Positions 27,254 to 58,762 of a stretch of 64,000 nucleotides of DNA are shown here, piece by piece. The stretch is from contig CAVUHW010000022.1 of the NCBI GenBank assembly GCA_963741205.1, forward strand, positions 64,001-128,000, in the 5' to 3' direction. Numbering within the stretch: position 1 is the stretch's first letter; every line of letters starts with the position of its first letter. This DNA is from Nitrospirota bacterium (GTDB taxonomy: Bacteria; Nitrospirota; UBA9217). A model generated the notes under the pieces. The model was not told the origin of the DNA, did no database searches, and saw only the letters and a program-made list of their open reading frames with translations. The position numbers were made by a program, and so were the translations under genes.

Positions 27254-30200
27254 ATGGAGACCACGAACGACATATGCATTCTCGATTTTCTGACCGGCAC
27301 GCTCTCAACGGCCTACAAGGGCGTCATCACCTCGCTTGTAGCCAAGGATTTCTGCGTGGCCAGAGGGGGGGACGCCGTTATTCTCAAAGGCAAGATCCTC
27401 TCCATGCCCGCGGGAAATTATGAGGCGTCGCTTATCGGTCGCGGCGTCGAGCTTGCCCGGACCGATCTTATCGAGGGAGCCTTCGAGCTCAAGGCAGGGG
27501 CCGAGCTGGTCAAGCGTGCGCAGGACCTCCAGATCGACATCATTCAGGAGGGGAGGCACATCGGGACTTTTTTGCTCAAAAGCGACGAGGCAGGAGGGGC
27601 CTACAGCTCGGCGATAGTGCTTTCCGATGAAATCAAGGGCATGGATTTCAAGCTCCTTACGGTTCCGCTGCGAGAGAAGGTCGGACTTCTCCAGAAGGCG
27701 GAGGAGATCATTGCCAAAATTTATTCTACGAAAAAAGACTGGGCGGCCTTTTCCGAACTCCTGCATGGCTTCGCTTATGACGCCTTCTGGTCCGCGAAGG
27801 ACGCTTTCTACGGCGGCTTCGCGATACTGGCCCGCTTCGCGCTCAAGGCCGCGGAGCGGACGGATAGGTCGCTTACGAACAAGCCCGTCTCAAACGTACT
27901 CGACTTGATCGAACTTCCCCTCTCGAGCGAGGAAGACGCCGGCCGGCTTCGCCCCGCCGTCGACATCTGGCTCAGAGAGCTTGCCGGATCGTCGATTGAC
28001 CTTTCCTCGCAGCTCCGCCAAGCCGCGCCCCTTCTCCGATCGATTAACGAACGATTCCCCGACGCGGACTTAGGTCCGGTCCTTGCCGGCATGCTCGGCT
28101 CGCTCCGGGAAAAGCTACGCACGGTCCCTCCTCTGGGTCGGGCTATTCTGGATCCCCTCCAGAGGAGCATGGACCCCGGCGAATACAAACTTCTCGCCCG
28201 CTACGGCGTCGAAGGGAGGGCGGAACTCGTCCGGGAACTCGCCCTTGCCGAAAGGGGCCTTGAGGCGCGGTCCCTCGGGGAAGTCCTGAGCTTCCTAAAC
28301 CGGCTGGATCCGGACAGCGTGGATGACGGGAAGATGATCGAGGCGTTCTTCGATGCCACCGCCCGATACCTGAGTGCCGCTTTGGCCGATGCCTTCCCGC
28401 AGGCGTTCTCGGAGATCGTTTCGTTCCTTCCCTCGCTCTCCGCGGGGGCAGTCTCGAAAATCATAGCGAACCTGCCCGGAGTGATAGAAAAGCTTCTCAA
28501 TATCGGACAGAACGACATCTGCGAATCGCTGCTCGCGGACGTTGCCCGCGCGGGTCCGCCGGTCACTGAAGAGATCGTCATGAACACCCGGATCGCCGCC
28601 GTTATCCTGGAATCCGAAAACGAAGAACTGATCGCGCGCTACCGGGACATCCTGACCGGCATCATTATCCCGGCCGCGAAAGTGCGCGAGATATCCGACG
28701 GAGACCTGGGCCGAGGTGGTGAACCCGCTCCATCTCGAGCGGCTCGCGAAGTTCATGGACATCCTGGAGCATGGCAGCGAGCGGCTCCGCGGCGTTCTCG
28801 TCCATGTAATCGCGAATCTCCTCGTAAGCGGGCTGTTCATTCCCGACGATCGCCTCTTTCAGCGAAGGGTCACGGCCTACCTGAATTCCGCGGCCATGCG
28901 CGGAGATTTCCTGCTGAACTACCTGCTCCTCCGGATGCTGCCGGTCTATTTCCACGAAGTGGGCGCCGTGAGCAGAATCCGCGATTTTTCCACCGAGATC
29001 GACTCGTGGGGAAACGATCCGGTTATCTACTTTGTCCGCAAACAGGTGCATGTGAATGCAAGCAATTACAATGTGCGGCTGATCGAGAGGGTCCTCGCGT
29101 CGTGGGTGTGGAACGACCCCGGCTTGCTGCAAGACGCCGTTCCTCGCGATATCTTGGAGAGCCTTGCGCCGGAATTCTTCGATAAGTATTCCCGGGTCAT
29201 CAGGCCGCTTTTCGAATCTCTCGGCGTGGTCGATGCTGACGGGCTTCACTTCGCACGGCTAATCGATGTCCCGGAGGAGGAATTCCGGAAAAGGTTAGGG
29301 GAAGGGCGGCTTGACGAAATTCCCGCCAAGGTCATGCTAATGTGCAGGCTGTACCAGGAGATCGTCGGAAAGTACTCCTTCGCGAGCAGGGAATCTGCGC
29401 ACACGGACATCATGACGTCGCTCTCGGGATATCTTGAGCGGATGCGAAAGAACGTCGGGATCGCGCGTTCCCCGGAAAAGACTGCCGCGCAGGAGTCCCT
29501 CTATTTTAAGCGTCATATCGCCTTCGGCATCCCCTCGGTTCTCGGGACCTACCATGAACCGAAGTTCGACGCCATGGCCGAGCTCCTCCGGGACGACGCC
29601 GGCATCAGCGTGCTGTTCGAAAAGATAATTTCCGATATACGGGCGCGGGAACATGATTTCTCTCCAGCCAAAGCCTCGGAGTGGATTCATGCTCTTGCCG
29701 CGGCTTCTCACGTGCTGAAGCTCCACGGGCTGGAAAACAGGCAGGTGGAGGAACTCGTCGAAATCAGCGAGGAAAGCAGGCTCTGCCTCTCCCAGGCCGC
29801 CGACCTGCTCAGGCTGTGGCAGAAGGAACTTGCCTGGCAGGTGGATTTCTTCAACCGTACGTTCCACAAGCCGGTCATCGCCGTTCTCGAACAATTCCCC
29901 AAAGAGGACCTGCCCGAATACCTCATGAACCTGGACCCTTCGTCACCTGACTTTACGAACAAGGCGGCGGACATCATCATCAGAGACATGCTCAGCAGTA
30001 TACCGGCGCTCGTGGAAGCGGACCGGATCATCGAACATCTGCTCGGAGCGATCCCGGCCCGCGTAGAGCAGGGAGCGGATGACGAGCTGGATAGCGGCAG
30101 GGCCGATGAGGACAGGCTGTTCTTTGCGCTTCATGAGCTCGACGAAAGCGACGCGATGAGGCTTGCTCCCCTGCTCGGCAGCAAGGCGAAGAACCTGGCC

Positions 30201-31702
30201 TATCATCGCGAAGCGGGGGTTCCGCGTCCCTGCCGGGGTCGTATTTTCCGCACGCTTGACAGCCGGGTACGAGGCGGCCTTCAGCAGCGCGGACTCGGCC
30301 GCCGTGCTGAAACAGGCGGTCAAGCCCATCGAGAACAGTACAGGACAGGTGTTCGGCGACGGCGCAAATCCGCTCTTCCTCTCGGTCAGGAGCGGGTCCT
30401 ACGTGTCCATGCCGGGCATCCTCTCAGACCGTTCTCTACTGCGGCATGAACGGGAAAACGCTCCAGGGACTTCTGCAAACGACGCGTGACCCCCTGTTTG
30501 CCTGGGACTCGTACCGGAGGTTCATCGAACATTACGCGGAAGTGGTCATGGGCCTCGACAGCTCGATCTTTGACACGATCACCACCGAGGCATTGAAGGG
30601 CTTCGGTCTGGCAAGCCGGGAAGAATTAAATGCCGCTCAGTCGGAAGAGATCGTCGGACGTTTTGTCGACGAGTTGTCCCGCCGGGGCCTGGCAATCCCC
30701 GACGACGTCTACGAACAGCTCCGCCAGGCGGTCCTGGCGGTCTACGCATCGTGGAACAGCAAGCGGGCCGTGCAGTTCAGGAGGGCCACGAGGACCTCCG
30801 CCTAGTGGGGAACGTCGGTGACCCTGATGAAGATGGTATACGGCAACAGGGCCGGGTCGGGGACATCGGTGTTCTTCACGCGTAATCCATTTACAGGGGA
30901 AAAAGGGATCTACGGCGAGACCAGGGAGCGCGCAACCGGCGAAGACCTCGTGCACGGGAAACAACGCAATCGCCCCCTTGCGAAGAGCCTGAAGGAAACG
31001 AAAGCGCCCTCTTTCGCGGGAGATGTCGGAGAAAAAAACGGCGGGTATCAGAAGGCGCAGGGTTTGAACGAGAGCCTCGAGGAGACGGACCCGGAATTAT
31101 TCGCCTTGCACCAGAAGCTGGCGAGGGAGATCGAGGAGGCCATGGGCGGGCTGCCGCAGGAGGTGGAGGTCACGTACACGACCGAGGAGGACGGCGCACG
31201 GCGGATCTCGGTGCTCCAGACGCGGCGCATGGAACTCATCGCCGGGACGGCGGCCGCCTTCGACGAAATATGCCGCATGGAGGCGCAAATCATCGGCAGG
31301 GGCCTCGCGGCCCATGGAGGGGCTCGGAGCGGCGTTGTTTCGTTTGCAAAGACCCCCGAGGAAATTCTGCAATTGCGAAAGGAATCCGGAATGCCCGTCA
31401 TTCTCCTCCGGACTACGGCGAACACCGATGATGTCTCCCTCATGCCGGTAATCGGCGGCATTGTCACCGCCTCGGGCGGCGTGACCTCCCATGCCGCCGT
31501 GCTGGCAGGGAAGTTCGGTGTTGACGCCGTCGTGGCTTGCAGGGACATGACCATCGGTACGGACGAGAAGGGCGAATCCGTTGCCCGGATCGGGGAGGCC
31601 GTGCTCAGGGAGGGATCGTTCATCAGCATCGACGGAGCGGCGGGCCTGGTCTTTTCAGGCCTCTGCCTGGAGGCAGACAAGGAAGAAAAGGGATACGTTT
31701 GA
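27254..31702 (+). CDS. ~1480-aa PPDK-like protein: large N-terminal region, ATP-grasp domain and phospho-His swivel; no pyruvate-binding barrel
   Basis: LLGSKAKNL, VPAG, SVRSG...SMPG, FAWDSYRRF, WGT.V...MVYGN, GEDLV, VLQTR, GGVTSHAAV, IDG..G.V; frameshifts ~28700, ~30210, ~30430 and in-frame TAG 30803-30805. Confidence 0.75.
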
Positions 31703-38317: not shown

Positions 38318-38487
38318 CCGGGAAACGCCAGAGAAAAGATCAGCATACAGTTCATGAGGCGGGAAAAAGAGGAAGGACAAAGTACCAAATCAAGGAGTTT
38401 CAGATCTCGTTAATAAAGTTTTTTTCTTTCTATTTTCCTTCTAAAGTCCGATAATACCATGTTAATCTAAAAACGTAGGAGCTACCC

Positions 38488-40590
38488 ATGGCACCACAAA
38501 AGACCGATGAAGCACAGAAGCCGTACCGGCCCTATGGCGCCGATATCAAGGAAACGAGACCCTACTCCCCCTGCCGGGCGGCCTGCCCGGCGCATACGGA
38601 CGTGCAGGCCTATGTAGGGCTGATCGCCCAGGGAAGGTATACCGAGGCGTTCGAGGTCATCACCGCGCCGAACCCGGTCGCTTCGGTCTGCTCGATGATC
38701 TGCCATCATCCCTGCGAGCAGTCATGCCGCCGATGCGGCGTGGATGAACCTCTTTCAGTCCGCCACTTGAAACGCTTCGCCATTGAAAAATCCACGGACT
38801 ACCGCCGAGCCAGGCGCCGGCTCATGCCGAAAACGAAGAACAAGAGCATCGGTATCGTCGGCTCCGGCCCGGCCGGGCTCACCGCGGCGAACGACCTCGC
38901 TAAATATCGGCTACAGCGTCACGATCTACGAACGCCATCCCGCTCTGGGCGGTATGCTGGTCTCGGCAATCCCTCCCTACCGGCTTCCGCGGGAAGTGCT
39001 GAAGGAAGACATCGACGACGTGGTTTCGAAGGGCATCGAGGTGAAGACGAATTGTGAGATCGGCAGGGACGTCACGTTTGACGACCTCACGAAGAAGCAC
39101 GATGCCGTGCTCGTGGCCATCGGCCTTTCCCTGAGCCGCTCTATCCCGATCCCCGGTGTGGAAGGCCCGGGTATCCTGCTCGCTATTCCGTTTCTGACCG
39201 ATGTGGCCTTTGGTAAAAAGCCCGCTCTGGGTAAAAAAGTTCTCGTCATCGGCGGCGGAAACGTGGCCATGGACGTGGCCCGTACCGCCCGCAGGCTCGG
39301 GGTCAAGGATGTGTCAATGGTCTGCCTGGAGAGCGCCGAAGAAATGCCGGCATGGAAATGGGAAGTGGACGAAGCCCTTGAGGAAAGCATCAAAATAAGC
39401 CACCGCTGGGGCCCCAAGGCGGTGAAACGCGACGGAGACAAGGTCCTGGGCCTCGAGGTGAAGAAGGTAAAATCCGTCTTCGACGCAAACGGCCGGTTCA
39501 ATCCCGCCTATGATGAGAACCAGACGACGCTCCTCGAGGCGGACACGATCATTATAACCATCGGCCAGATGTCGAACCTTTCGTTCCTCAAGGACACGGC
39601 AGTCAAAATAGACGAGCGCGGAAGGGTCGAGTGGAACCAGGCGACCCAGATGAGCAGCGCCAAGGGCGTGTTCCTGTCCGGCGAGGTCGTGACCGGGCCG
39701 GGCTCGGCCATTGCCGCCGTGGCGAACGGCCATCGCGCCGCGCTTGCGATTCATCTTTACTGCCAGGGAGAGACGATCGAAGGAAAGCTCCCCTCACAGG
39801 AGAAGGAAAAGATCGCCCAGATGCCCCCGGACCTCGTCGAGAAGATAGGCAAGGAACCGCGGGTCAAGATCAAGCACCTCGCTCCCGAAGTCCGGTGCGA
39901 CGCCATGGTCCACTTCGAGATCGGCTACGACGAGACCGAAGCGCTCAAGGAAGCCGGCCGGTGCCGGGGCTGTGGAGGCGGCGCGGTCGTGGACAAGAAC
40001 AAGTGCATGGCCTGCCTCACCTGCATGCGTATCTGCCCCTACGGCGCGCCGGTGGTCACGTCCCATTCAGAGATCACGGCCCGAGTACTGCCAGGCCTGC
40101 GGCCTCTGCGCTCCTGAGTGCCCCGGCGAGGCGATCAGCATGGTGAGCTACGACATTCGGGATCATAGGAGCAACATGGCTGAATGTCGTCGGCAAGGTT
40201 GACGCGAAGAGGCAGGAGCCGGTGATCGTCGCCTTCATGTGCACGCACCATGTCGGAGTCCTGGGCTTCGATGTTACGAAAAATGTTAAAACCGTTCCGG
40301 TCCACTGCACGAGCCGGATCGACGTCCTCGATATCTTGAAGGCCGTTGAAAGCGGCGCCGACGGCGTGGCTGTCGTCCGGTGCGGGGACGCGACATGCAA
40401 GTACCGGGACATCGAGCCGCGCGTGAACGCGCGCGTAAAGCGGGCACAGGAACTGATCGGAGCGCTGGGAATCGAGAAGGGACGAATCGAAATCCTTTCG
40501 GCAACATCCGGCAATGGCGGTAATCCCTACGCGGCGGTATGCGCGGAGTTTTCAGAGAGAGTCAAGAAGATGGGGATGAGGGTGAAGTAA
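38488..40590 (+). CDS. GltD/NfnB-like FAD-NAD(P)H oxidoreductase fused to 2x[4Fe-4S] and an MvhD/FlpD domain (~700 aa; frameshifts ~38900, ~40077, ~40181)
   Basis: PCRAACP..VCSMICHHPCEQSC; GSGPAG; GGGNVAMD; EAGRCRGC; CMACLTCMRICP and CQACGLCAPECP; IVAFMC..VHCTSRID..GADGV..C....CKY. Confidence 0.8.
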
Positions 40591-40633
40591 TCGTTATTCG
40601 ATTCGAAATCGAAACAATAAGGAGTGTTGAACT

Positions 40634-41353
40634 ATGATCGTTGGATCACAAAAACCAATCGATGAAATCTGGGGCATGGTAAAGGACTTCAAGAAGGTCC
40701 TGGTGTTCGGGTGCAACACCTGCGTGGCCATCTGCCATGCAGGCGGCGAGAAAGAGGCGGAGACCATCGCCTCGCTGATCCGCATGCGCGCCTCGCAGGA
40801 AGGGAAAGAGATGACGGTAGGCCACCTCGGGGTGATGCGCCACTGCGAGCCGGAGTATTTCGACCCGGTGATGGATGAGGTGAAGAAGTACGACCTCGTG
40901 CTCTCCACGGCCTGCGGGGTGGGCGTAAACTTTCTGTCCGACCGGACCGGGACGATCCCCGTCTATCCCGGCATCAACACCTCGTTTTACGGCGCCGTAG
41001 AAGCGCCGGGCCTTTTTAAGGAGCTCTGCGCGGGCTGCGGCAACTGCATCGTGCATCTGACCGGCGGCCTCTGCCCCATCGCGCGCTGCTCCAAGACACT
41101 CATGAACGGGCCCTGCGGAGGCACGAACAAGGGCAAGTGCGAGGTCAGTCGAACGAGGTCGACTGCATCTGGTACCTGATCGTGGAGCGGATGAAGAAGC
41201 TCGGCACCCTGGAGAAGCTCTCGGAGATCCAACCGCCGCGCAACTGGTCTACGTCGCGTGACGGCGGACCGCGCACGCATATCGCTTGAACATATCCGGG
41301 AGTTCGAGGAGAAGGAAGAAGCGAAGACTGAGACAGCGGGAGGGAAGAAATAA
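40634..41353 (+). CDS. metV: Methylene-THF reductase subunit MetV (frameshifts ~41150, ~41281)
   Basis: GCNTCVAIC, ACGVG, CAGCGNC..TGGLCPIARCSKTLMNGPCGG..GKCEV..CIW; TAA overlaps the metF ATG. Confidence 0.88.
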
Positions 41354-42326
41354 TGAAGAGCGGAAGCAACCTCGAAAAAGTCATTGCGAGCGGCAAGCCT
41401 GCGGTCACGGCGGAGCTTGGCCCGCCCATGAGCGCCGACCCACATGAAGTAATAAAGAAAGCGCAGATCCTCAAGGGCTTCTGCGACGCTGCGAACATCA
41501 CCGACTGCCAGACTGCGGTCGTCCGGATCTCGAGCATCGCTGCCGCGGCAATCGCATTTCAGCAGGGCCTCGAGCCGGTCATGCAGATGACCTGCCGCGA
41601 CCGGAACCGCATCGCCATGCAGGCCGACCTGTTGGGCGGTGCCGCACTCGGTCTCAAGAACTGTCTCTGCATCGCCGGAGACCATCAGAAATTCAGCGCA
41701 GCGGGCAAGCTCAAGGGCCATCCGGGCGCAAAGAACGTGTACGACGTGGACACGTGCCAGCTCGTCGGGATCATGAAAAAGATGCGCGATGAGGGCAAGC
41801 AGGACGGCGGCGACCCGCTTGGAAGTGGCCCCGAAGTTCTTCATCGGAGCATCTTGGACCCCCATGGCCGATCCGATCGATTTCAGGCCGATCAACCTCA
41901 TGAAAAAGGTAAACGCCGGGGCCGATTTTATCCAGACCCAGGGCATCTACGACATGGAAGGTTTCCGCGCCGCAGATGGCGAAGATCCGGAACATGGGCC
42001 TCCATGAGCGCACTGCGATCCTCGCGGGCATCATCGTGCCGAAGAGCGCCATGATGCTCAAGTACATGGATTCCTCTGTTGCCGGCGTATCCGTGCCGAA
42101 GGCGCTTATCGACCGGATGAACAAGGCGAAAGCGGCAGCCGGGGAAGACAAGAAGAAGGCAAAGGAGCTTCAGGAGCAGGAAGGCATCAAGATCGCGATC
42201 GAACTTATCCACCAGGCATTGGAGACCCCGGGCGTCAAGGGCGTGCATATCCAGGCAATTGAATGGGAGAGCGCTATCGAAGGGATCGTCAAAGCGGCCG
42301 GGCTGTATCCGAGACCGGCGGTGTAA
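41353..42326 (+). CDS. metF: Methylene-THF reductase MetF (frameshifts ~41820, ~41975)
   Basis: TAELGPP, ANITD, MQMTCRDRNRIAMQADLLG, KKVNAGADFIQTQ, GVHIQ. Confidence 0.92.
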
Positions 42327-42370
42327 TTAGGTAGGGCAAGGGTCACGCAGCAAGGGACAAGGGGACCACG

Positions 42371-43170
42371 ATGCCGAAGATCACCATCCTCGATATCTAC
42401 AAGAAAAAGGCCGAAGGCAGGAAGATCACGATGCTTACGGCCTATGACTACCCCACGGCCCAGATCGTTGACCAGGCGGGGATCGACATGATCCTTGTCG
42501 GCGACTCGCTCGGGATGGTTGTCCAGGGCGTGTCGAGTACGCTGCCGGTCACGATGGACGAGATGCTCTATCATACGCGATGGTTTCCCGGGCGGTGCAG
42601 TCCGCCATGGTCGTGGGCGACATGCCTTTTCTTTCTTATCAGACGGATAAGGCCGAAGCTGTCAGGAATGCGGGCCGGTTCCTGAAGGAGGCCGGGGCTG
42701 AAGCAGTGAAGCTCGAAGGCGGAAGTCAGATGGCTGAGGCGATCAATGGCGTCGTCAATGCCGGCATTCCGGTGGTGGCCCATATCGGACTCACGCCGCA
42801 GTATGTGCATATGCTCGGCGGATTCAAGGTCCAGGGAAAGGACGAGGCGGCCCGTGAAAAGATCCTCGCCGACGCGCGGGCTGTGCAGGACGCGGGGGCG
42901 TTCTCCGTCGTGCTCGAGGCGATACCGGCTGATCTCGCCGGGGAGATCAGTAAAATGCTCCATATCCCTACCATCGGGATCGGCGCGGGCGTCGATTGCG
43001 ACGGTCAGGTGCTTGTCCTTCATGATCTCCTGGGCCTGTTCGATCGATTTACGCCCAAGTTCGTGAAGAAATACGCCAACCTGAAGGACCAGGCGCTGAA
43101 AGCCGTAAAGGAATACAAGCAGGAAGTTGAGTCCGGAAGCTTCCCATCCCAGGAACACAGCTTTAAATAA
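42371..43170 (+). CDS. panB: Ketopantoate hydroxymethyltransferase (frameshift ~42578)
   Basis: MLTAYD, LVGDSLG, DMPF, VKLEGG, HIGLTPQ, IGIGAG..CDGQVLV. Confidence 0.95.
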
Positions 43171-43216
43171 TAAAAAAATATTTTCGCAGAGTTGCTTTAT
43201 CGATGAGGAAAATTTC

Positions 43217-43942
43217 ATGTCCCTTTTTTGTTTGCAGGCCAAAAGCATATCGGACGCATGGTTCCAGCTAATCTATAACATTTTTGATCACTCGTACACG
43301 CAGAAAATACAAAAAGGTTCCTTTGAAAAGGAGCAGTACCGGTTGCAGTATTCCGGTCTTGCCGTGTACATAGAGCATCCGTATGAAGATATAATCCCCG
43401 TTATTCCACCGGCGCTGGGCATTCCCTCGCCAACTACCCTGGAATATATCAACGACTATTTTGCAAATTATTTGATGGATCCTGTCTTGGCAGAGAATGA
43501 AACGTATAAATATGCGAGCAGGATTCAGCATCCTATGCCGAAAGGAGGGACGCAACTGGACCGGGCCATTGAGATGTTGAAGGAGACTCCTCTGACGAAT
43601 CAGGCCATCGTGGAGATCGGCTCCCCGGACGACCACGACGTTTGCATCGGCAATGATGGAAAGCTCGACCCTCCATGCCTGAGACTGCTGGATTTTAAAG
43701 CGGTCCCTCAGAATGACGAACTCGTGCTCTCAATCAGTTGTTATTTCCGCTCCTGGGATCTGTGGGCGGGTTTTCCGACGAATCTCGGAGGTTTGGAACT
43801 TCTTAAGAGTTATGTCGCATCTGAAACAGGCTTAAAGAACGGACCCATGTATGCGTACAGCGCGGGCGCCCACATTTACGGATATCAGGAAGAAATCGCG
43901 CGAATACGAACTTTGCGTCAAAAGGAATCACCGAAAAAGTAG
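43217..43942 (+). CDS. thyA: Thymidylate synthase, compact archaeal-like ThyA
   Basis: PPCL catalytic Cys, YFRSWDL..GFPTN, AHIY. Confidence 0.85.
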   Translation: MSLFCLQAKSISDAWFQLIYNIFDHSYTQKIQKGSFEKEQYRLQYSGLAVYIEHPYEDIIPVIPPALGIPSPTTLEYINDYFANYLMDPVLAENETYKYASRIQHPMPKGGTQLDRAIEMLKETPLTNQAIVEIGSPDDHDVCIGNDGKLDPPCLRLLDFKAVPQNDELVLSISCYFRSWDLWAGFPTNLGGLELLKSYVASETGLKNGPMYAYSAGAHIYGYQEEIARIRTLRQKESPKK

Positions 43943-51975: not shown

Positions 51976-52446
51976 ATGGAAGAAAAACTCGAGGGAATAT
52001 ATGCCCGATACCGGGAAAATGAAGGGAACCTGATCTCGATCCTCCAGGATATCGAGAGCGAGTTCGGGTATCTGCGCGAGGAAGCGATCGACTGGTTCTC
52101 GGAGCGGCTCGATGTCCCGCCGGCGAGGTTCTACGGGGTGGCCACATTCTACGCCCAGTTCCACCTCAAGCCCCGGGGGAAAAACATCATCACCGCCTGC
52201 TGCGGTACCGCGTGCCACGTCAAGGGCTCCGAGCGGCTCATCAACAGCCTGACAAGGGAACTGGCCATCCCTTCGGGCGAGGACACGTCCGAAGACCTCA
52301 AGTTCACCGTGGAAAAAGTGAACTGTGTCGGCGCCTGCAGCATCGCGCCGGTCATCATCGTGAACAAGGCGGTGCACGGCAAGATGTCTCCGGACAAGCT
52401 CATGAAGGAAATCAAGGTCCTCAAGGCTAGTGAGGCGGGGAAATAG
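51976..52446 (+). CDS. NuoE/HydC/HylC-like 2Fe-2S subunit
   Basis: GVATFY.QF, CCGTACHVKG, VNCVGACSIAP. Confidence 0.92.
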   Translation: MEEKLEGIYARYRENEGNLISILQDIESEFGYLREEAIDWFSERLDVPPARFYGVATFYAQFHLKPRGKNIITACCGTACHVKGSERLINSLTRELAIPSGEDTSEDLKFTVEKVNCVGACSIAPVIIVNKAVHGKMSPDKLMKEIKVLKASEAGK

Positions 52447-54225
52447 ATGAAGAACGATATCTCGATAAAAGTATGTATGGGCACGGGCGGGATGGCGGCC
52501 GGCGGCGAACAGGTGAAGTCAACGTTCGAGAAGGCCTTTGCGGCCGCGGGCATTGCCGCACGCGTGGAGAAGAATTGCTCCGTGCACAAAGTGGGCTGCA
52601 GGGGGTTCTGCGCCCGTGACGTGCTGGTAGACGTTATTGTAGACGGGCACAAGTCCACCTACGAGTACATCAAAGCCGACATGGTCGAGCGGATCGTGAA
52701 CGAGCATGTCATGGGCGGCGCTCCTGTCGCCGAATGGCTCGTAAAGGACGATTACCACACCTTCCACGACAAGCAGGTCAAGGTTGTTCTTTCCGACTGC
52801 GGTGAGGTGGACCCGGAAGACATCGACTCGTACATCAGCCGCGGCGGGTACGAGGCCGTCAAGAAGGTGCTCACGACCATGGCCCCGCAGGAAATCATCG
52901 AGGTCATCAAGGCATCGGGTCTTCGCGGCCGCGGAGGCGCGGGCTTCCCCACCGGGACAAAGTGGGACATGGCGATCAAAGCGCCCGGTCCCGTCAAGTA
53001 CCTTATCTGCAACGCCGACGAGGGAGACCCGGGCGCGTTCATGGACCGATCCGTGGTCGAGGGAAACCCGCACGCGGTGCTTGAGGGCATGATCATCGGC
53101 GCCTATGCCATAGGCGCGCCCTATGGATACGTGTACATCCGGGCCGAGTACCCCCTCGCAGTTGAACGCCTCCACAAGGCGATCAAGCAGGCCACGGAAC
53201 GGGGCTATCTGGGCAAGAACATCTTCGGGAAAGACTTCGAGTTCAAGATCAAGGTGAAACTCGGGGCCGGAGCCTTCGTCTGCGGAGAAGAGACGGCCCT
53301 TATTGCTTCCATCGAGGGCAAGCGCGGACAGCCGCGGGCCAAGCCGCCTTTCCCCGTCCAGAAGGGCCTCTGGGGCTATCCCACGATCATCAATAACGTG
53401 GAGACGCTCGCGAACGTTCCGTACATCATGCGCAAGGGCGCCGCTTGGTATGCGAGCATGGGCACGGAAAAGAGCAAGGGGACGAAAGTCTTCGCGCTCA
53501 CCGGCAAGATCCTGAACTCGGGCTTGATCGAGGTGCCTATGGGCATCTCGCTCAAAGAGGTCATCTACGACATCGGCGGCGGCATCGAAGGCGGCAGGAA
53601 GCTCAAGGCCGTCCAGACCGGCGGCCCATCCGGCGGATGCATCCCCTCCTCCATCATCGACACCACCCTGGATTATGAGTCGCTCGGCAAGGTCGGCTCC
53701 ATCATGGGCTCGGGTGGCATGGTGGTCCTGGACGAGACAGACTGCATGGTGAACGTGGCCAAGTACTTCCTGCAGTTCACGCAGTCGGAATCCTGCGGAA
53801 AATGCGTGCCGTGCAGGATTGGCACCAAGCGTCTTCTCGAAATCCTGACGCGGATCACTCAAGGCAAGGGCAGGGAAGGCGACATCGACCTTCTCCAAAC
53901 TCTCGCCAGCGACGTGAAGACCTCGTCGCTCTGCGGACTCGGCCAGAGCGCGCCGAATCCGGTTCTCTCCACGATCAAATATTTCCGCGACGAGTACGAC
54001 GCGCATATCTACGAACACCGCTGCCCGGCGGGCGTGTGCAAGGACCTGCTCACCTATTCCATCCTTGAGGAGTTCTGCAAGGGCTGCACCCTCTGCACGC
54101 GGGTCTGTCCCGCTGGCGCCATCATGGGTGAGAAAAAGAAGCCGCATAAGATCGTGCAGGACCTCTGCATCAAATGCGGCGCCTGCTTCGAAACGTGCAA
54201 GTTCAAAGCGATCAAAAAAGGGTAA
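52447..54225 (+). CDS. NuoF/HydB/HylB-like FMN-NAD subunit with C-terminal 2x[4Fe-4S]
   Basis: SGLRGRGGAGFPTG, CNADEGDPGAFMDR, GAFVCGEETAL, GGPSGG, ESCGKCVPCR, two CxxCxxCxxxC. Confidence 0.93.
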   Translation: MKNDISIKVCMGTGGMAAGGEQVKSTFEKAFAAAGIAARVEKNCSVHKVGCRGFCARDVLVDVIVDGHKSTYEYIKADMVERIVNEHVMGGAPVAEWLVKDDYHTFHDKQVKVVLSDCGEVDPEDIDSYISRGGYEAVKKVLTTMAPQEIIEVIKASGLRGRGGAGFPTGTKWDMAIKAPGPVKYLICNADEGDPGAFMDRSVVEGNPHAVLEGMIIGAYAIGAPYGYVYIRAEYPLAVERLHKAIKQATERGYLGKNIFGKDFEFKIKVKLGAGAFVCGEETALIASIEGKRGQPRAKPPFPVQKGLWGYPTIINNVETLANVPYIMRKGAAWYASMGTEKSKGTKVFALTGKILNSGLIEVPMGISLKEVIYDIGGGIEGGRKLKAVQTGGPSGGCIPSSIIDTTLDYESLGKVGSIMGSGGMVVLDETDCMVNVAKYFLQFTQSESCGKCVPCRIGTKRLLEILTRITQGKGREGDIDLLQTLASDVKTSSLCGLGQSAPNPVLSTIKYFRDEYDAHIYEHRCPAGVCKDLLTYSILEEFCKGCTLCTRVCPAGAIMGEKKKPHKIVQDLCIKCGACFETCKFKAIKKG

Positions 54226-54227
54226 CC

Positions 54228-56904
54228 ATGTTAAAACTCATCATTAACAACAAACACATAACCGCGCCGATGGGCGTAACCATCCTCGAGGCCGCACGGC
54301 GCAACGACATCCACATTCCCACGCTCTGCGACGACCCGCGGCTTGAACCCCACGGCGGATGCAGGCTTTGCCTGGTCCAGGTCAAGGGCATGCCCCGTCC
54401 GGTGACGGCATGCACGACGCCGGCGACCGATGGCATGGACGTGGAAACGTCGAACGAGCTGATCGAGCGCCAGCGACGAACCATTGTCGAACTGCTCCTT
54501 TCCGACCATCCCGAACGACTGCATGGTCTGCGAGCGGGCAGGGGACTGTACACTCCAGGAACTGGCCTACTTCTACGACCTCCGTGCGAACCGCTTCTGG
54601 GGCCAGCGGCGCCAGTACACCAAAAAGGACATGAACCCCTTTATCGAACGGGACATGGAGAAGTGCGTCCTGTGCGGCAAGTGCGTCCGGGTCTGCGACG
54701 AGATCCAGGGCCTCGGAGCGATCGACATCTCCGGCAGGGGATTCACCGCCAAGGTGACGCCGGCCTTCGAAAAGGACCTGGACTGCGAATTCTGCGGCCA
54801 GTGCGTCAGCATCTGCCCGACCGGCGCGCTCATCTCCAAGCAGGCCCTGGGCAAGGGCAGGGAAAAGGACGTGAAGGAAGTCGAGACCATCTGCTCCTAC
54901 TGCGGATGCGGATGCAACCTCACCCTGCACGTCTCCAGGAATGAAGTGGTGCGCGTCACCTCGCGCCGTGACACGATCAACGAAGGCTGGCTCTGCGTCA
55001 AGGGGAGGTTCGGCCAGGGCTTCCTCAACAGCCCGGACCGGCTCACGACGCCGCTCATCAGGAAGGACGGCGCGCTCGTACCCGCCTCCTGGGACGAGGC
55101 ATTCGGCCTACATCGCCGAGAAGCTTGCCGCCATCAAGAAGAAGCACGGTCCCGATGCAATCGGCGGCCTCTCCTCGGCACGTTGCACCAACGAGGAAAA
55201 CTACCTATTCCAGAAATTCATGCGCGCGGGCATTGGCACGAACAATGTCGACCACTGCGCACGCTACTGACACAGCACGACTGTGGCCGGTCTGGCCACC
55301 GTATTCGGTTCCGGGGCAATGACGAATTCGATCGCGGAGATCGAGAACAACGATGTGCTGTTCGTCATCGGCTCCAATACCAAGGAGAACCATCCCATTG
55401 TCGCGCTCCGGATGATCAAGGCGAAGAGGAAGGGCGCGAAGATCATCATCGCCGATCCGCGGCGCGTGCCTCTGGTCCGCTTCGCCGACATCTGGATGCA
55501 GCACAAACCCGGAACGGACGTGGCGCTCTTAAACGGGATGATGCACGTGATCATGAAGGAGGGCCTCGAGGACAAGGACTTCATCGCGTCCCTGACCGAG
55601 GGCTTTGACGACGCGTTCAGAAAGAACATCGAGGAGTTCACACCCGAGGCCGCCTCGAAGATCACCGGCGTCCCTGCGGAAACCATCGTGAAAGCCGCAC
55701 GGATGTACGGCGAGTCCGACAAGGCCGGCATCTACTACACCATGGGGATCACCCAGCATGCCCACGGCACGGAGAACGTATTCTCTATCGCCAACCTCGC
55801 GCTGATGACCGGAAACCTGGGCAAGGAAAGCGCGGGAGTCAACCCGCTACGCGGCCAGAACAACGTCCAGGGCTCCACGGACATGGGGTGCAGCCCCAAC
55901 AACTATCCCGGATACCAGAAGGTGAGCCTCCCGGAGAACCAGGCGGAAGTTCGAGGAGCTGTGGAAGGTGAAACTTTCGACCCAACGAAGGGATCACCGC
56001 GTCCGGAGATGCTCGACGCGGCGGAAAAGGGGACGTTCAAGGCCCTGTACATCATGGGCGAGAACCCCGTCGTCTGCGACCCGAACATGGCGCACACCAT
56101 CAAAGCGCTCAAGGCGCTCGAATTTCTGGTGGTCCAGGACATCTTCATGACTGAGACCGCCGAGCTGGCCCACGTGGTCCTGCCTGCCACGGCCTTCGCC
56201 GAGAAGGATGGCACGTTCACGAACACCGAACGCCGCGTGCAGCGCGTCGGCACGCCGTAAACCCCCCGGGGGAGGCCAAGGGGGATTGCAGATCATCATG
56301 GAGCTTTCCAGGCGGATGGGCTATGAGATGAGCTACGCCCACACGGTAGAGGTGTTCCGCGAGATCTGCCGGGCATGGCCTGCCATGGAGGGCATGAGCT
56401 ACGCGAGGCTGCAGGACGGGGGCCTCCAGTGGCCCTGCCCGCACCCGACCATCCGGGAACGCCGTATCTGTTCAAGGGCGGGTTCCCGCGCGGGAAAGGC
56501 AGGTTCACCTCGTCACATACAAGCCGTCCATCGAACAAACGGACACAGAATATCCCTTCCTCCTGACCACGGGCGGCAGCTGTTCCAGTATCACACCGGC
56601 AGCATGACGAGGCGCGTGAAAGCGATCGACACGGTGTCGCCCGAGGCGTTATGTCGAGATCAATCCGGCGGACGCGAAGGCCCTGTCCCTTGCGAGGGAG
56701 GCTCGAAGGTCAAAGTGAGCTCGCGGCGCGGGTCCATCACTGTGAAAGCACGTGGTTTCCAAGCGGCCGGCAAAGGGCGTGGTATTCATCCCCTTCCATT
56801 TCAAGGAAGCGGCGGCCAACATGCTGACGAGCAACACCTCGCTCGATCCTATAGCAAAGATCCCCTCCTTCAAGGTTTCCGCAGTTCGGATCGAAAAGGC
56901 GTAA
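54228..56904 (+). CDS. fdhA: Selenocysteine formate dehydrogenase alpha subunit with NuoG-like N-terminus (several frameshifts)
   Basis: [65 protein letters not shown]. Confidence 0.9.
55268..55310 (+). promoter_or_regulatory. In-frame UGA (Sec) codon with a bacterial SECIS
   Basis: TGA 55268-55270 at the Mo/W-ligand position; hairpin GTGGCC-GGTCT-GGCCAC at 55283-55299, placed as in the E. coli fdhF SECIS. Confidence 0.88.
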
Positions 56905-56996
56905 TCACGGATTACGCGGAGACGTTCGGAGTCTCAAAGATAGTATTTCAATGTGAGCCACACGAGGCCCGCATATTAAAAAAAGGAGGAATTGCT

Positions 56997-58762
56997 ATGC
57001 CCTATGATGCAACGAAGTTAGCCGACTGGCAGATTTCCGAAGAAGCGGAAAAGAAAATGCCCACGCCGGAACAGTGGCGCGAGAAACTGGGCCTGCAAAA
57101 GGACGAGATGCTGCCCATGGGCCGCCTGTCCAAGATCGACTTTCTCAAGGTCATCAACCGCCTCAAGAACAAGCCTGACGGCAAGTACATCGAGGTGACC
57201 GCCATCACCCCGACCCCTCTGGGCGAAGGCAAAAGCACCACCTCGTGCGGTCTGATGGAAGGCCTGGGCAAGCGCGGTGTGAACGTCGGCGGGGCGCTGC
57301 GCCAGCCTTCCGGCGGTCCCACCATGAACGTCAAGGGCACCGCGGCCGGCGGCGGCAACTCCCTGCTGATCCCCATGACCGAGTTCTCACTGGGCCTCAC
57401 CGGCGACATCAACGACATCATGAACGCCCACAACCTGGCCATGGTGGCGATGACCTCCCGCATGCAGCACGAGCGCAACTACAACGACGAGCAGCTGGCG
57501 CGTCTCACCAAGATGAGGCGTCTCGACATCGACCCCACCCGCGTGGAGATGGGGTGGATCATGGACTTCTGCGCCCAGAGCCTCCGCAATATCATCATCG
57601 GCATCGGCGGCCGGACGGACGGCTTCATGATGCAGTCCAAGTTCGGCATCGCTGTCGGCTCCGAGTGCATGGCCATCCTGTCCATAGCCAAAGACCTCGC
57701 GGACCTGAAGCAGCGCCTGAACAACATCACCGTTGCCTTCGACAAAAGCGGCAAACCGGTTACCACCGGCGATCTGGAAGTCGGCAACGCCATGGCCGCC
57801 TTCATGCGCAATACCATCAACCCCACCCTCATGTGCACGGCCGAATACAACCCCTGCTTCGTCCATGCCGGGCCGTTCGCCAATATCGCCGTCGGCCAGT
57901 CATCCATCATCGCCGACCGCGTCGGCCTGAAGCTGTTCGACTACCATGTGACCGAGTCCGGCTTTGCGGCCGACATCGGCTTTGAGAAGTTCTGGAACGT
58001 CAAGTGCCGTTTCAGCGGCCTGAAACCCCACGTTTCGGTGCTCACCACCACCGTCCGCGCCCTGAAGATGCACGGCGGCGGCCCCAAGGTCGTGGCCGGC
58101 AAGGCCCTGCCCGAAGAGTACACCAAGGAGAATGTGGGCCTGGTTGAAAAGGGCTGCGCCAACATGGTCCACATGATCAACGTCATCCGCAAGTCCGGCA
58201 TAAACCCGGTGGTCTGCATCAACCGTTTTTACACCGACACCGAATGCCGAAGTGGCCGCTGTCAAGAAGGCCGCCGAAGCAGCCGGCGCCCGCTGCGCCG
58301 AATCCCAGCACTGGCTCAAGGGCGGCGAGGGGGCACTGGAACTGGCCGACGCGGTCATCGACGCCTGCAACGAGAAGAACGATTTCAAGTTCCTCTACCC
58401 GCTGGAGATGAAGCTGCGCGACCGCGTGGCGCTAATCGCCAAGGAAGTGTACGGCGCCGACGGCGTTTCCTGGCTGCCCGAAGCTGAAGCCAAGGCCAAG
58501 ATGCTGGAAGACGATCCCAAGTACGCCGACTACGCCACCATGATGGTCAAGACCCATCTGAGCCTCACCCACGATCCGACCGCTCAAGGGAGTGCCCAAG
58601 GGCTGGACGCTGCCCATCAGGGACGTCCTGATCTACTCGGGCGCCAAGTTCCTGTGCCCGTGCGCAGGGACGATCAGCCTCATGCCCGGAACGAGCTCCA
58701 ACCCGGCATTCCGCCGCGTGGACGTGGATGTAAACACCGGCAAGGTCTCAGGGCTGTTCTAA
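56997..58762 (+). CDS. fhs: Formate-tetrahydrofolate ligase (frameshifts ~58245, ~58585)
   Basis: [48 protein letters not shown]; AGGAGG RBS. Confidence 0.95.

Follow-up and report, generated by a model that had tools for sequence, protein, structure and literature searches.

In the Wood-Ljungdahl pathway, the ATP balance is set by how electrons are supplied for the reduction of methylene-tetrahydrofolate (methylene-THF), and this supply is described in PMC8760232 as open for several enzyme types. The classification given there comprises four types of methylene-THF reductase (MTHFR): MetF alone, MetVF, RnfC2-MetVF (type III) and HdrCBA-MvhD-MetVF (type IV). According to the same source, RnfC2-MetVF depends on reduced nicotinamide adenine dinucleotide (NADH) and is neither stimulated by ferredoxin nor reduces it, and in HdrCBA-MvhD-MetVF the HdrA subunit oxidises NADH while the second acceptor is not known. 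What kind of enzyme, then, is encoded by a locus that has metV and metF behind another sort of gene? Such a locus lies in the window, which here means the whole 64,000-nucleotide stretch analysed (positions 64,001 to 128,000 of contig CAVUHW010000022.1, Nitrospirota assembly GCA_963741205.1). On its + strand, a gene for a 699-aa fusion of a GltD/NfnB-like flavoprotein, a ferredoxin and MvhD (38488..40590) is followed by metV (40634..41353; Pfam DUF5981/MetV, the MetV C-terminal domain) and by metF (41353..42326; Pfam MTHFR), which is the sole MTHFR gene found when the genome itself was searched. The initial annotation had placed this make-up outside the described MTHFRs, and it is indeed absent from the four types of PMC8760232; no description of a GltD/NfnB-like-ferredoxin-MvhD subunit together with MetVF was found in full-text searches of the open-access literature. 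We suggest that the fusion is probably the NADH-oxidising electron-input subunit of a three-subunit MTHFR (fusion, MetV and MetF) of the Wood-Ljungdahl pathway, a hybrid of types III and IV, which would be a fifth MTHFR subunit make-up.

In the window the fusion gene is spread over four open reading frames (ORFs; 38488-39057, 38783-40117, 39972-40202 and 40222-40590, all +), which the initial annotation had joined into one protein of about 700 aa by correcting three single-base indels. When an intact 699-aa relative (P0001, 95% identity over the query part) was aligned by tblastn, its residues 1-138 fell in frame +1 (38488-38901), those up to 529 in frame +2 (to 40075), residues 530-563 in frame +3 (to 40178) and residues 566-699 again in frame +1 (40186-40587). 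This tiling contains exactly three +1 shifts, with frame changes near 38901, 40076 and 40180. The pieces were 90-92% identical to the intact relative in tblastn, no stop codon interrupts the proper frame, and a manual tally shows 103 of the best 120 database relatives to be one-piece proteins, 690-706 aa long, that carry the full set of domains. We also compared positions 38400-42400 with Logan contigs assembled from short reads of four public metagenome runs (X1-X4, of the 'DNA?' kind; depth 2-16, with 16 to 24 of 30 bins covered per run); some of these runs possibly come from the source sample, and they are independent of the assembly and not of the organism. Every short-read contig that crosses a break is one base shorter than the window there, and several are otherwise identical to it. 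The first extra base (38900, frame +1 to +2) is missing in X2, in a 151-nt contig that is otherwise identical, and the tblastn frame change lies at 38901/38906. The second (40076..40077, frame +2 to +3) is missing in X2, X3 and X4, and the third (40180, frame +3 to +1), which lies between the ferredoxin and MvhD domains, is missing in X1 and X3, both in agreement with tblastn. Since short-read contigs lack the extra base at all three places, the breaks are insertion errors of a noisy assembly and the gene is one ORF. The initial annotation had named short reads as the means of confirming its three corrections, and by this comparison the reconstruction stood and a separate mvhD was refuted.

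The domains of the fusion were examined with Pfam, which recognised, above cut-off, Fer4_20 (E 1.4e-15), Pyr_redox_2 (1.5e-23), two Fer4 motifs and FlpD/MvhD (5.9e-23) in the pieces. The N-terminal cluster-binding helices of the Fer4_20 type (residues 27-103; 38566..38796) carry C29, C33, C68, C72, C76 and C80 and are followed by the Rossmann body for flavin adenine dinucleotide (FAD) and NAD(P) (38836..39763), with GSGPAG at 38860-38877, GGGNVA at 39251-39268 and Arg165 in IPPYRLP. Behind the body come an R-C-x-x-C motif (39959..39973), a 2x[4Fe-4S] ferredoxin domain of the HdrA C-terminal type (39980..40160) and the MvhD (FlpD) domain with four Cys (40186..40587). An alignment of 57 fusions, 21 from the Nitrospirota group and 36 at 34-44% identity, revealed that C33-P34, C72, C76-E77, C80, K95, R165 and R491-C492-x2-C495 (P0001 numbering) are invariant in 57/57, as are both Rossmann glycine motifs and the two CxxCxxCxxxCP motifs (506-516 and 534-544). 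C29, which forms PCxxxCP with C33, and C68 are nearly invariant, and the MvhD Cys residues are kept at 584 in 53/57, at 606 in 49/57, at 631 in 56/57 and at 636 in 51/57. Judged by these motifs, the Fer4_20 and Pyr_redox_2 body with its two Rossmann motifs classes the protein as a GltD/NfnB-type iron-sulfur flavoprotein, and the C-terminal part is classed as MvhD by a FlpD domain with Cys ligands for one predicted [2Fe-2S] cluster.

The order of the segments differs from that of NfnB. HMMER aligned residues 5-42 of T. maritima NfnB (38 N-terminal residues, ending in RCxxC) with residues 458-495 of the fusion, and the rest of NfnB with residues 25-428. Because the N-terminal RCxxC segment of NfnB aligns behind the flavoprotein body of the fusion, the alignment indicates that the fusion is a circular permutation relative to NfnB, with RCxxC as the permuted half of a predicted distal [4Fe-4S] site, and the split Fer4_20 cluster that had been read from the window was borne out. 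The permutation is common to StnC (8oh5_C) and the A subunits of NfnABC (9bov_A and 9n5u_A), with whose own motifs the RCxxC also aligns. The NADPH- or NADH-input domains of NfnABC (9n5u and 9bov) and StnC (8oh5_C) are also the best solved matches (E 1e-86 to 9e-95; Foldseek TM 0.65-0.66, a result that only repeats that of the sequence), within a range of E 2e-64 to 9e-95 for PDB matches of the GltD/NfnB-type body as a whole. In the same PDB search, residues 499-552 matched the HdrA C-terminal ferredoxin domain (HdrA residues 577-638) and residues 576-696 matched MvhD chains (E 3e-10 to 1e-7). The AlphaFold2 model of the full-length fusion was confident, with a predicted local confidence (pLDDT) of 89.4 and a predicted TM score (pTM) of 0.87.

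Linkage of the fusion to metV-metF was examined in 80 species-representative loci. A locus was counted as unlinked when it had at least 2.5 kb of room and no metV (6 loci), and 5/80 end too early to be assessed. In 69 of the 75 assessable orthologous loci, metV follows the fusion on the same strand, with a gap of at most 300 nt in 59, of 301-1000 nt in 6 and of 1-5 kb in 4; in the last four (L017, L035, L071 and L085), other DNA stands between the fusion and metV. For a sister group of fusions from another family (35-39% identity), the place of metV is listed in 11 genomes; ten of them (G283, G325, G291, G235, G305, G199, G277, G285, G347 and G229) have metV no more than about 0.7 kb from the fusion, and in the remaining one (G391) the distance is 3.4 kb. 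A metagenome scan with distant fusions yielded nine one-piece fusions (31-70% identity), and metV or metF stood within 1 kb in six of the eight assessable ones; two lacked both despite sufficient room, and one of the nine could not be judged. For scale, MetV (PF12225) is present in 280 genomes of a phylum sample of 401, of which 119 match the fusion at E <= 1e-100 with other architectures included. The initial annotation had made metVF synteny among homologs a test of its proposal, and the linkage proved to be tight and deep. Three loci are of separate interest. In L188 (G283:C83, 2153-9645), a divergent fusion of 676 aa is followed by two tandem metV genes and metF, with a second metF about 2 kb further on. 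The orthologs in L080 (90% identity) and L060 (68% identity), both accompanied by metVF, come from bins that bear the labels Betaproteobacteria and Syntrophobacterales, respectively, for which mis-binning or gene transfer is possible.

Comparison with close relatives revealed that the fusion is exchanged for an Hdr module at the very same locus. One genome of the same genus (G087) and two of the same family (G005 and G042) are without the fusion and have an Hdr-type module in its place before metV-metF-panB. The order in this module is a gene of hdrC size (~200 aa), one of hdrB size (~295 aa), a double hdrA of 1018-1087 aa and mvhD, which is the Moorella type; Pfam was run on G087 only, where it confirmed Fer4_17, CCG and FlpD, and G005 and G042 were assigned by ORF sizes and tblastn. 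In another genus of the family, G069 has hdrC, hdrB, a 1477-aa HdrA with inserted Fer4_20 and Pyr_redox_2 (GltD) and mvhD, followed by metVF, and three metagenome loci (L119, L123 and L164) have the same HdrL-type protein and mvhD before metVF. When the 63 genomes of the family sample were tallied manually, 38 contained the fusion, 5 were of the HdrL type and 20 gave no match at E <= 1e-100; three of these 20 were examined, and all three had the Hdr type. The fusion is thus common in anaerobic Nitrospirota and exchangeable with hdrCBA-mvhD in one genus, and leads from the Atlas, which are leads only, place it in Chloroflexota and Thermodesulfobacteriota as well. In its composition the fusion looks like an HdrL reduced to the GltD part, the last ferredoxin domain and MvhD. 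In a FastTree phylogeny of the GltD core (159 rows, after 7 of 166 were dropped because they had no core match or one shorter than 330 residues), the 60 rows with the fusion architecture do not form a single clade. The architecture requires 19 changes, at least 7 of them forced by well-supported branches, and the fusions are interleaved with HdrL-like proteins, where domain labels come from crude probes and deep branches are weak. Repeated interconversion would fit this rough tree, from which we draw no order of events. A different composition was seen in L114 (5312-8437) and L148 (5288-8467), where a protein of 1041-1059 aa, with a GltD-like C-terminal half, an N-terminal match to the NuoF probe and no MvhD, stands directly before metV-metF.

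We predicted the complex of MetV with fusion residues 485-699, and the score was 0.50 ('weak support'), while the best of three controls reached 0.00. The mark applied here was reached by 58/80 solved complexes and 2/110 mismatched pairs, and at scores of 0.60 or below by 7/80 and both mismatches. At least 98% of contacts recur between runs, with a partner pLDDT of at least 80. No solved sequence relative of MetV was found in the PDB search, so the score is not a memory of that pair.

For the electron donor, the residues behind the second Rossmann strand are informative. A YRR motif stands at this position in NfnB and StnC, and according to PMC7596348 it holds the 2'-phosphate of NADPH. In alignments to the solved chains, C-L-E (39323..39331) stands at the YRR place of the fusion; it was found in 21/21 fusions of the Nitrospirota group and in about 28-30 of the 36 distant ones, and YRR in 6/36. 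Because CLE stands where the NADPH-holding YRR would be, NADH appears to be a likelier donor than NADPH, in agreement with the hint that the initial annotation had taken from the acidic motif. The role of the flavin may be judged from the ligand of the proximal cluster. The account in PMC10482914 gives as features of bifurcation in NfnB an Arg hydrogen-bonded to flavin N5 and a proximal cluster with Glu as a ligand. For StnC, the same account describes a kept Arg that is too distant and Lys170 as the ligand, and reports that mutagenesis and structural analysis showed the FAD to be non-bifurcating, doing no more than shuttle electrons into the cluster chain. Lys95 of the fusion (38770..38772) aligns with StnC K170 (8oh5_C) and with the Lys of the NfnABC chains (9bov_A and 9n5u_A), whereas both NfnB structures have Glu there ('KLERF' in 5jca_L and 'RLERF' in 4ylf_B). 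Since Lys95 is present as in the non-bifurcating StnC, without the Glu of NfnB, this marker suggests that the flavin module is of the shuttle type, which weakens the idea of bifurcation.

Based on these observations, we propose the following route of electrons. A hydride from NADH would reduce the FAD in the GltD-like body, and the FAD would release single electrons through the Lys-ligated proximal [4Fe-4S] cluster and then the permuted distal cluster. From there, electrons would flow by way of both ferredoxin-domain clusters to the [2Fe-2S] cluster of MvhD, which would bind MetV and hand them to its clusters, and finally to the flavin of MetF, where methylene-THF would be reduced. The ferredoxin domain and MvhD would correspond to the connector between the HdrA C-terminus and MvhD of type IV, with the HdrA flavin core and HdrBC lost, and the enzyme would function like the non-bifurcating RnfC2-MetVF of Acetobacterium woodii. 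The flow might be reversed when the pathway oxidises acetate.

The hybrid character becomes apparent when the locus is compared with known systems. With the type IV enzyme of Moorella thermoacetica and Sporomusa ovata, it has in common MetV, MetF and the MvhD connector, encoded together, a proposed NADH donor, a ferredoxin domain before MvhD that resembles the HdrA C-terminus, and the same genomic place in congeners. It differs in having no HdrA flavin core, HdrB or HdrC at the locus and no site for a second acceptor, with NADH entering through a GltD-type domain and MvhD fused to it. The likeness to type III of A. woodii lies in three subunits, one of them a dedicated iron-sulfur flavoprotein that would wire NADH to MetVF, and in a chemistry that is likely the same and non-bifurcating. 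However, the input subunits are unrelated, with RnfC-type flavin mononucleotide there and GltD-type FAD and MvhD here, and no RnfC neighbour is present. The NADPH-input domain of StnC (8oh5) and NfnABC-A (9bov and 9n5u) resembles the fusion in the RCxxC behind the body, the Lys at the proximal cluster, the kept Arg and the shuttle role. In contrast to it, the fusion, in which 27 residues precede the GltD match, has neither the N-terminal [2Fe-2S] part nor the NuoG/FdhF-like domain, has no NuoE/NuoF partners at its locus, carries CLE instead of YRR and ends with Fer4 and FlpD, that is, a ferredoxin and MvhD. NfnB of NfnAB (4ylf and 5jca) shares the fold, two [4Fe-4S] clusters, the FAD and NAD(P) Rossmann folds and 31-33% identity, but has Glu instead of the Lys ligand, YRR instead of CLE and an N-terminal instead of a permuted RCxxC, and the fusion has no adjacent NfnA. 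HdrL, or type III HdrA (GltD inserted in HdrA), with mvhD likewise couples a GltD-type NADH module to MvhD; unlike the fusion, it retains HdrA in full and has HdrBC as its partners. Finally, DsrL has the same domain order of an NfnB-like body, a linker and a C-terminal 2x[4Fe-4S] domain (PMC7596348), but it lacks MvhD and is linked to dsrAB, whereas the fusion has MvhD and is linked to metVF; no dsrAB search of this genome was made.

Several findings weigh against a dedicated NADH-dependent MTHFR subunit. The donor assignment depends on a single motif, and the score of the MetV-fusion complex is weak. Six of the 75 assessable orthologs (L050, L063-L066 and L068; 65-68% identity) have no metVF within the locus; they belong to a Thermodesulfovibrio/Dissulfurispiraceae-like clade, and the genes checked beside the fusion in L063 and L064 have housekeeping functions. 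In this clade, G331 has its own hdrC-hdrB-hdrA-mvhD-metV-metF and carries the fusion on another contig, and G393 (92% complete) has the fusion and no PF12225 match. Among the distant fusions, L106 adjoins dsrC and L107 stands among housekeeping genes (primase and sigma factor); in L106 (3311-5880), the gene behind the 656-aa fusion (43% identity) is DsrC-like (PF04358, E 3.8e-35) and takes the place of metVF. Given the stand-alone clade, G393, L106 and L107, the family is not tied to MetVF everywhere. The initial annotation had regarded homologs without metVF linkage as refuting; most homologs are linked, and one clade does keep the fusion apart from metVF. A further difficulty concerns the direction of flow. 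'Ca. Sulfobium', whose genome bin has the same arrangement (L049), is thought to run the pathway oxidatively, where the reduction of NAD+ by methyl-THF is uphill by the potentials quoted in the literature, which argues for some extra coupling.

These exceptions raise the question of whether the fusion is rather a DsrL/HdrL-like NAD(P)H:acceptor oxidoreductase of general function, with an MvhD end that docks on DsrC-linked proteins, HdrA or formate dehydrogenase and with MetVF as just one frequent neighbour. Stand-alone orthologs in a clade that already has hdrCBA-mvhD-metVF and the fusion next to dsrC would be expected from such a protein, as would the interleaving with HdrL-like proteins in the rough tree. 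In addition, MvhD is described as a shared docking subunit, and DsrL, which has the same layout of body, linker and ferredoxin, is according to PMC7596348 an NAD(P)H:acceptor oxidoreductase without bifurcation that is defined by its dsrAB linkage. However, metVF adjoins in the 69 of 75 orthologs and in the sister group at 35-39% identity, hdrCBA-mvhD is swapped in at the very same locus, and the complex score exceeds all controls, so that we consider a general oxidoreductase unlikely.

The initial annotation had also raised bifurcation to ferredoxin at the NfnB-type flavin. In such a bifurcating or confurcating MTHFR, the GltD-type FAD would split the electron pair of NADH, one electron reaching MetVF via MvhD and the other reaching ferredoxin via the [4Fe-4S] clusters; run backwards, this would drive methyl-THF oxidation. 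The fold family does contain the bifurcating NfnB, the protein has two separate cluster sets and a [2Fe-2S] cluster, the fusion takes the place of an HdrABC module for which bifurcation has itself been proposed, and coupling would benefit the oxidative use of the pathway in relatives. Arg165 of IPPYRLP is also kept in 57/57 fusions; that this Arg is not diagnostic, as had been cautioned, agrees with StnC, in which the FAD was found experimentally not to bifurcate despite the kept Arg (PMC10482914). Moreover, the proximal ligand is the Lys of StnC and not the Glu of NfnB in all 57 fusions, and the nearest solved relatives are the input domains of Stn and NfnABC rather than NfnB. The gene order offers no partner either, as the neighbours are folE and metV and no NfnA (PyrK-like) gene is adjacent, although no genome-wide nfnA search was made. 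The domain order suits a single wire, and the NADH-dependent type III enzyme is reported in PMC8760232 as non-bifurcating. Bifurcation is therefore quite improbable in our view. Were it nevertheless true, which we hold to be quite improbable as well, this would be the smallest flavin-based bifurcating (in acetate oxidisers, confurcating) methylene-THF reductase, with NADH reducing methylene-THF and ferredoxin together without Hdr, and it would give the Wood-Ljungdahl pathway a coupling that has been sought for a long time.

Another arrangement would be a type IV enzyme assembled in trans, in which the fusion gives only the NADH input and MvhD, and HdrABC encoded elsewhere joins and offers a site for the second acceptor. 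The genome bin (4.27 Mb, 50 contigs, 84% complete; the window lies on its contig C22) has no match to CCG (HdrB) on C22, all 10 matches being on other contigs, and none to RnfC_N on C22, where the matches are on C14 and C15 only. The earlier statement that hdrB, hdrC, a canonical hdrA and rnfC2 are missing therefore holds for the locus and not for the genome, since C27 carries a complete hdrCBA-mvhDGA unit and C15 a third FlpD. HdrABC might thus help in trans, which also weighs against a self-sufficient three-subunit enzyme, and published surveys assume that HdrABC need not sit with metFV-mvhD. However, the cluster on C27 is a complete hydrogenase unit with an MvhD of its own, the fusion is without the HdrA thioredoxin-reductase core that would seat HdrBC, and Hdr-using relatives keep Hdr at the metVF locus. 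We regard an assembly in trans as very unlikely, and prefer a three-subunit enzyme of fusion, MetV and MetF. One survey presumed HdrABC wherever metFV and mvhD co-occur, and surveys that count 'metFV + mvhD' as an Hdr-type bifurcating enzyme may misfile genomes with the fusion, whose relatives carry generic database names ('FAD-dependent oxidoreductase' and 'formate dehydrogenase beta subunit'). The module swap provides a natural experiment from which the contribution of the Hdr module may be learned, and the three-gene operon is small enough to be expressed.

Frame breaks were also found in the two following genes. metV, intact with 233 aa in L008, has extra bases at 41149, 41151 and 41274 (missing in X3), and metF at 41817 (missing in X2 and X3) and 41970 (missing in X3). 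Although an extra base at eight places over three consecutive genes could be read as decay, with real frameshifts and a reductase that is dead in this organism, we find this scarcely credible, since near-identical short-read contigs lack the base at every one of the eight places, similar splits are seen in panB and in further genes of the window, and the shifts in the fusion gene are all +1, in pieces that keep their high identity to the intact relative and contain no in-frame stop. panB appears as two overlapping ORFs (42371-42685 and 42580-43170), and is intact with 266 aa in L008. Overlapping ORF pairs on the + strand occur elsewhere in the window, for example 27254-29185 with 28716-30449, and at 54174-56260, and single-base insertions seem to be spread across the whole assembly.

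The closest database relatives carry the names Nitrospirota, Thermodesulfovibrionales or 'Candidatus Sulfobium'. The surroundings contain genes for 5-formyl-THF cyclo-ligase, GTP cyclohydrolase I (folE), panB, two CooC-like ATPases, a methyltransferase, both corrinoid-protein subunits and CdhC. Beside panB, an ORF of 271 aa (43127-43942) matches thymidylate synthase only weakly and in part (PF00303, E 2.9e-12, residues 131-265). Downstream of the acetyl-CoA-synthase genes, the region 51976-58487 contains a gene for a NuoF-like protein (52447-54225; Complex1_51K, NADH_4Fe-4S and Fer4), flanked by a 156-aa ORF and large split ORFs; this may be a hydrogenase or formate dehydrogenase module that is linked to NAD(P) and belongs to the same pathway.

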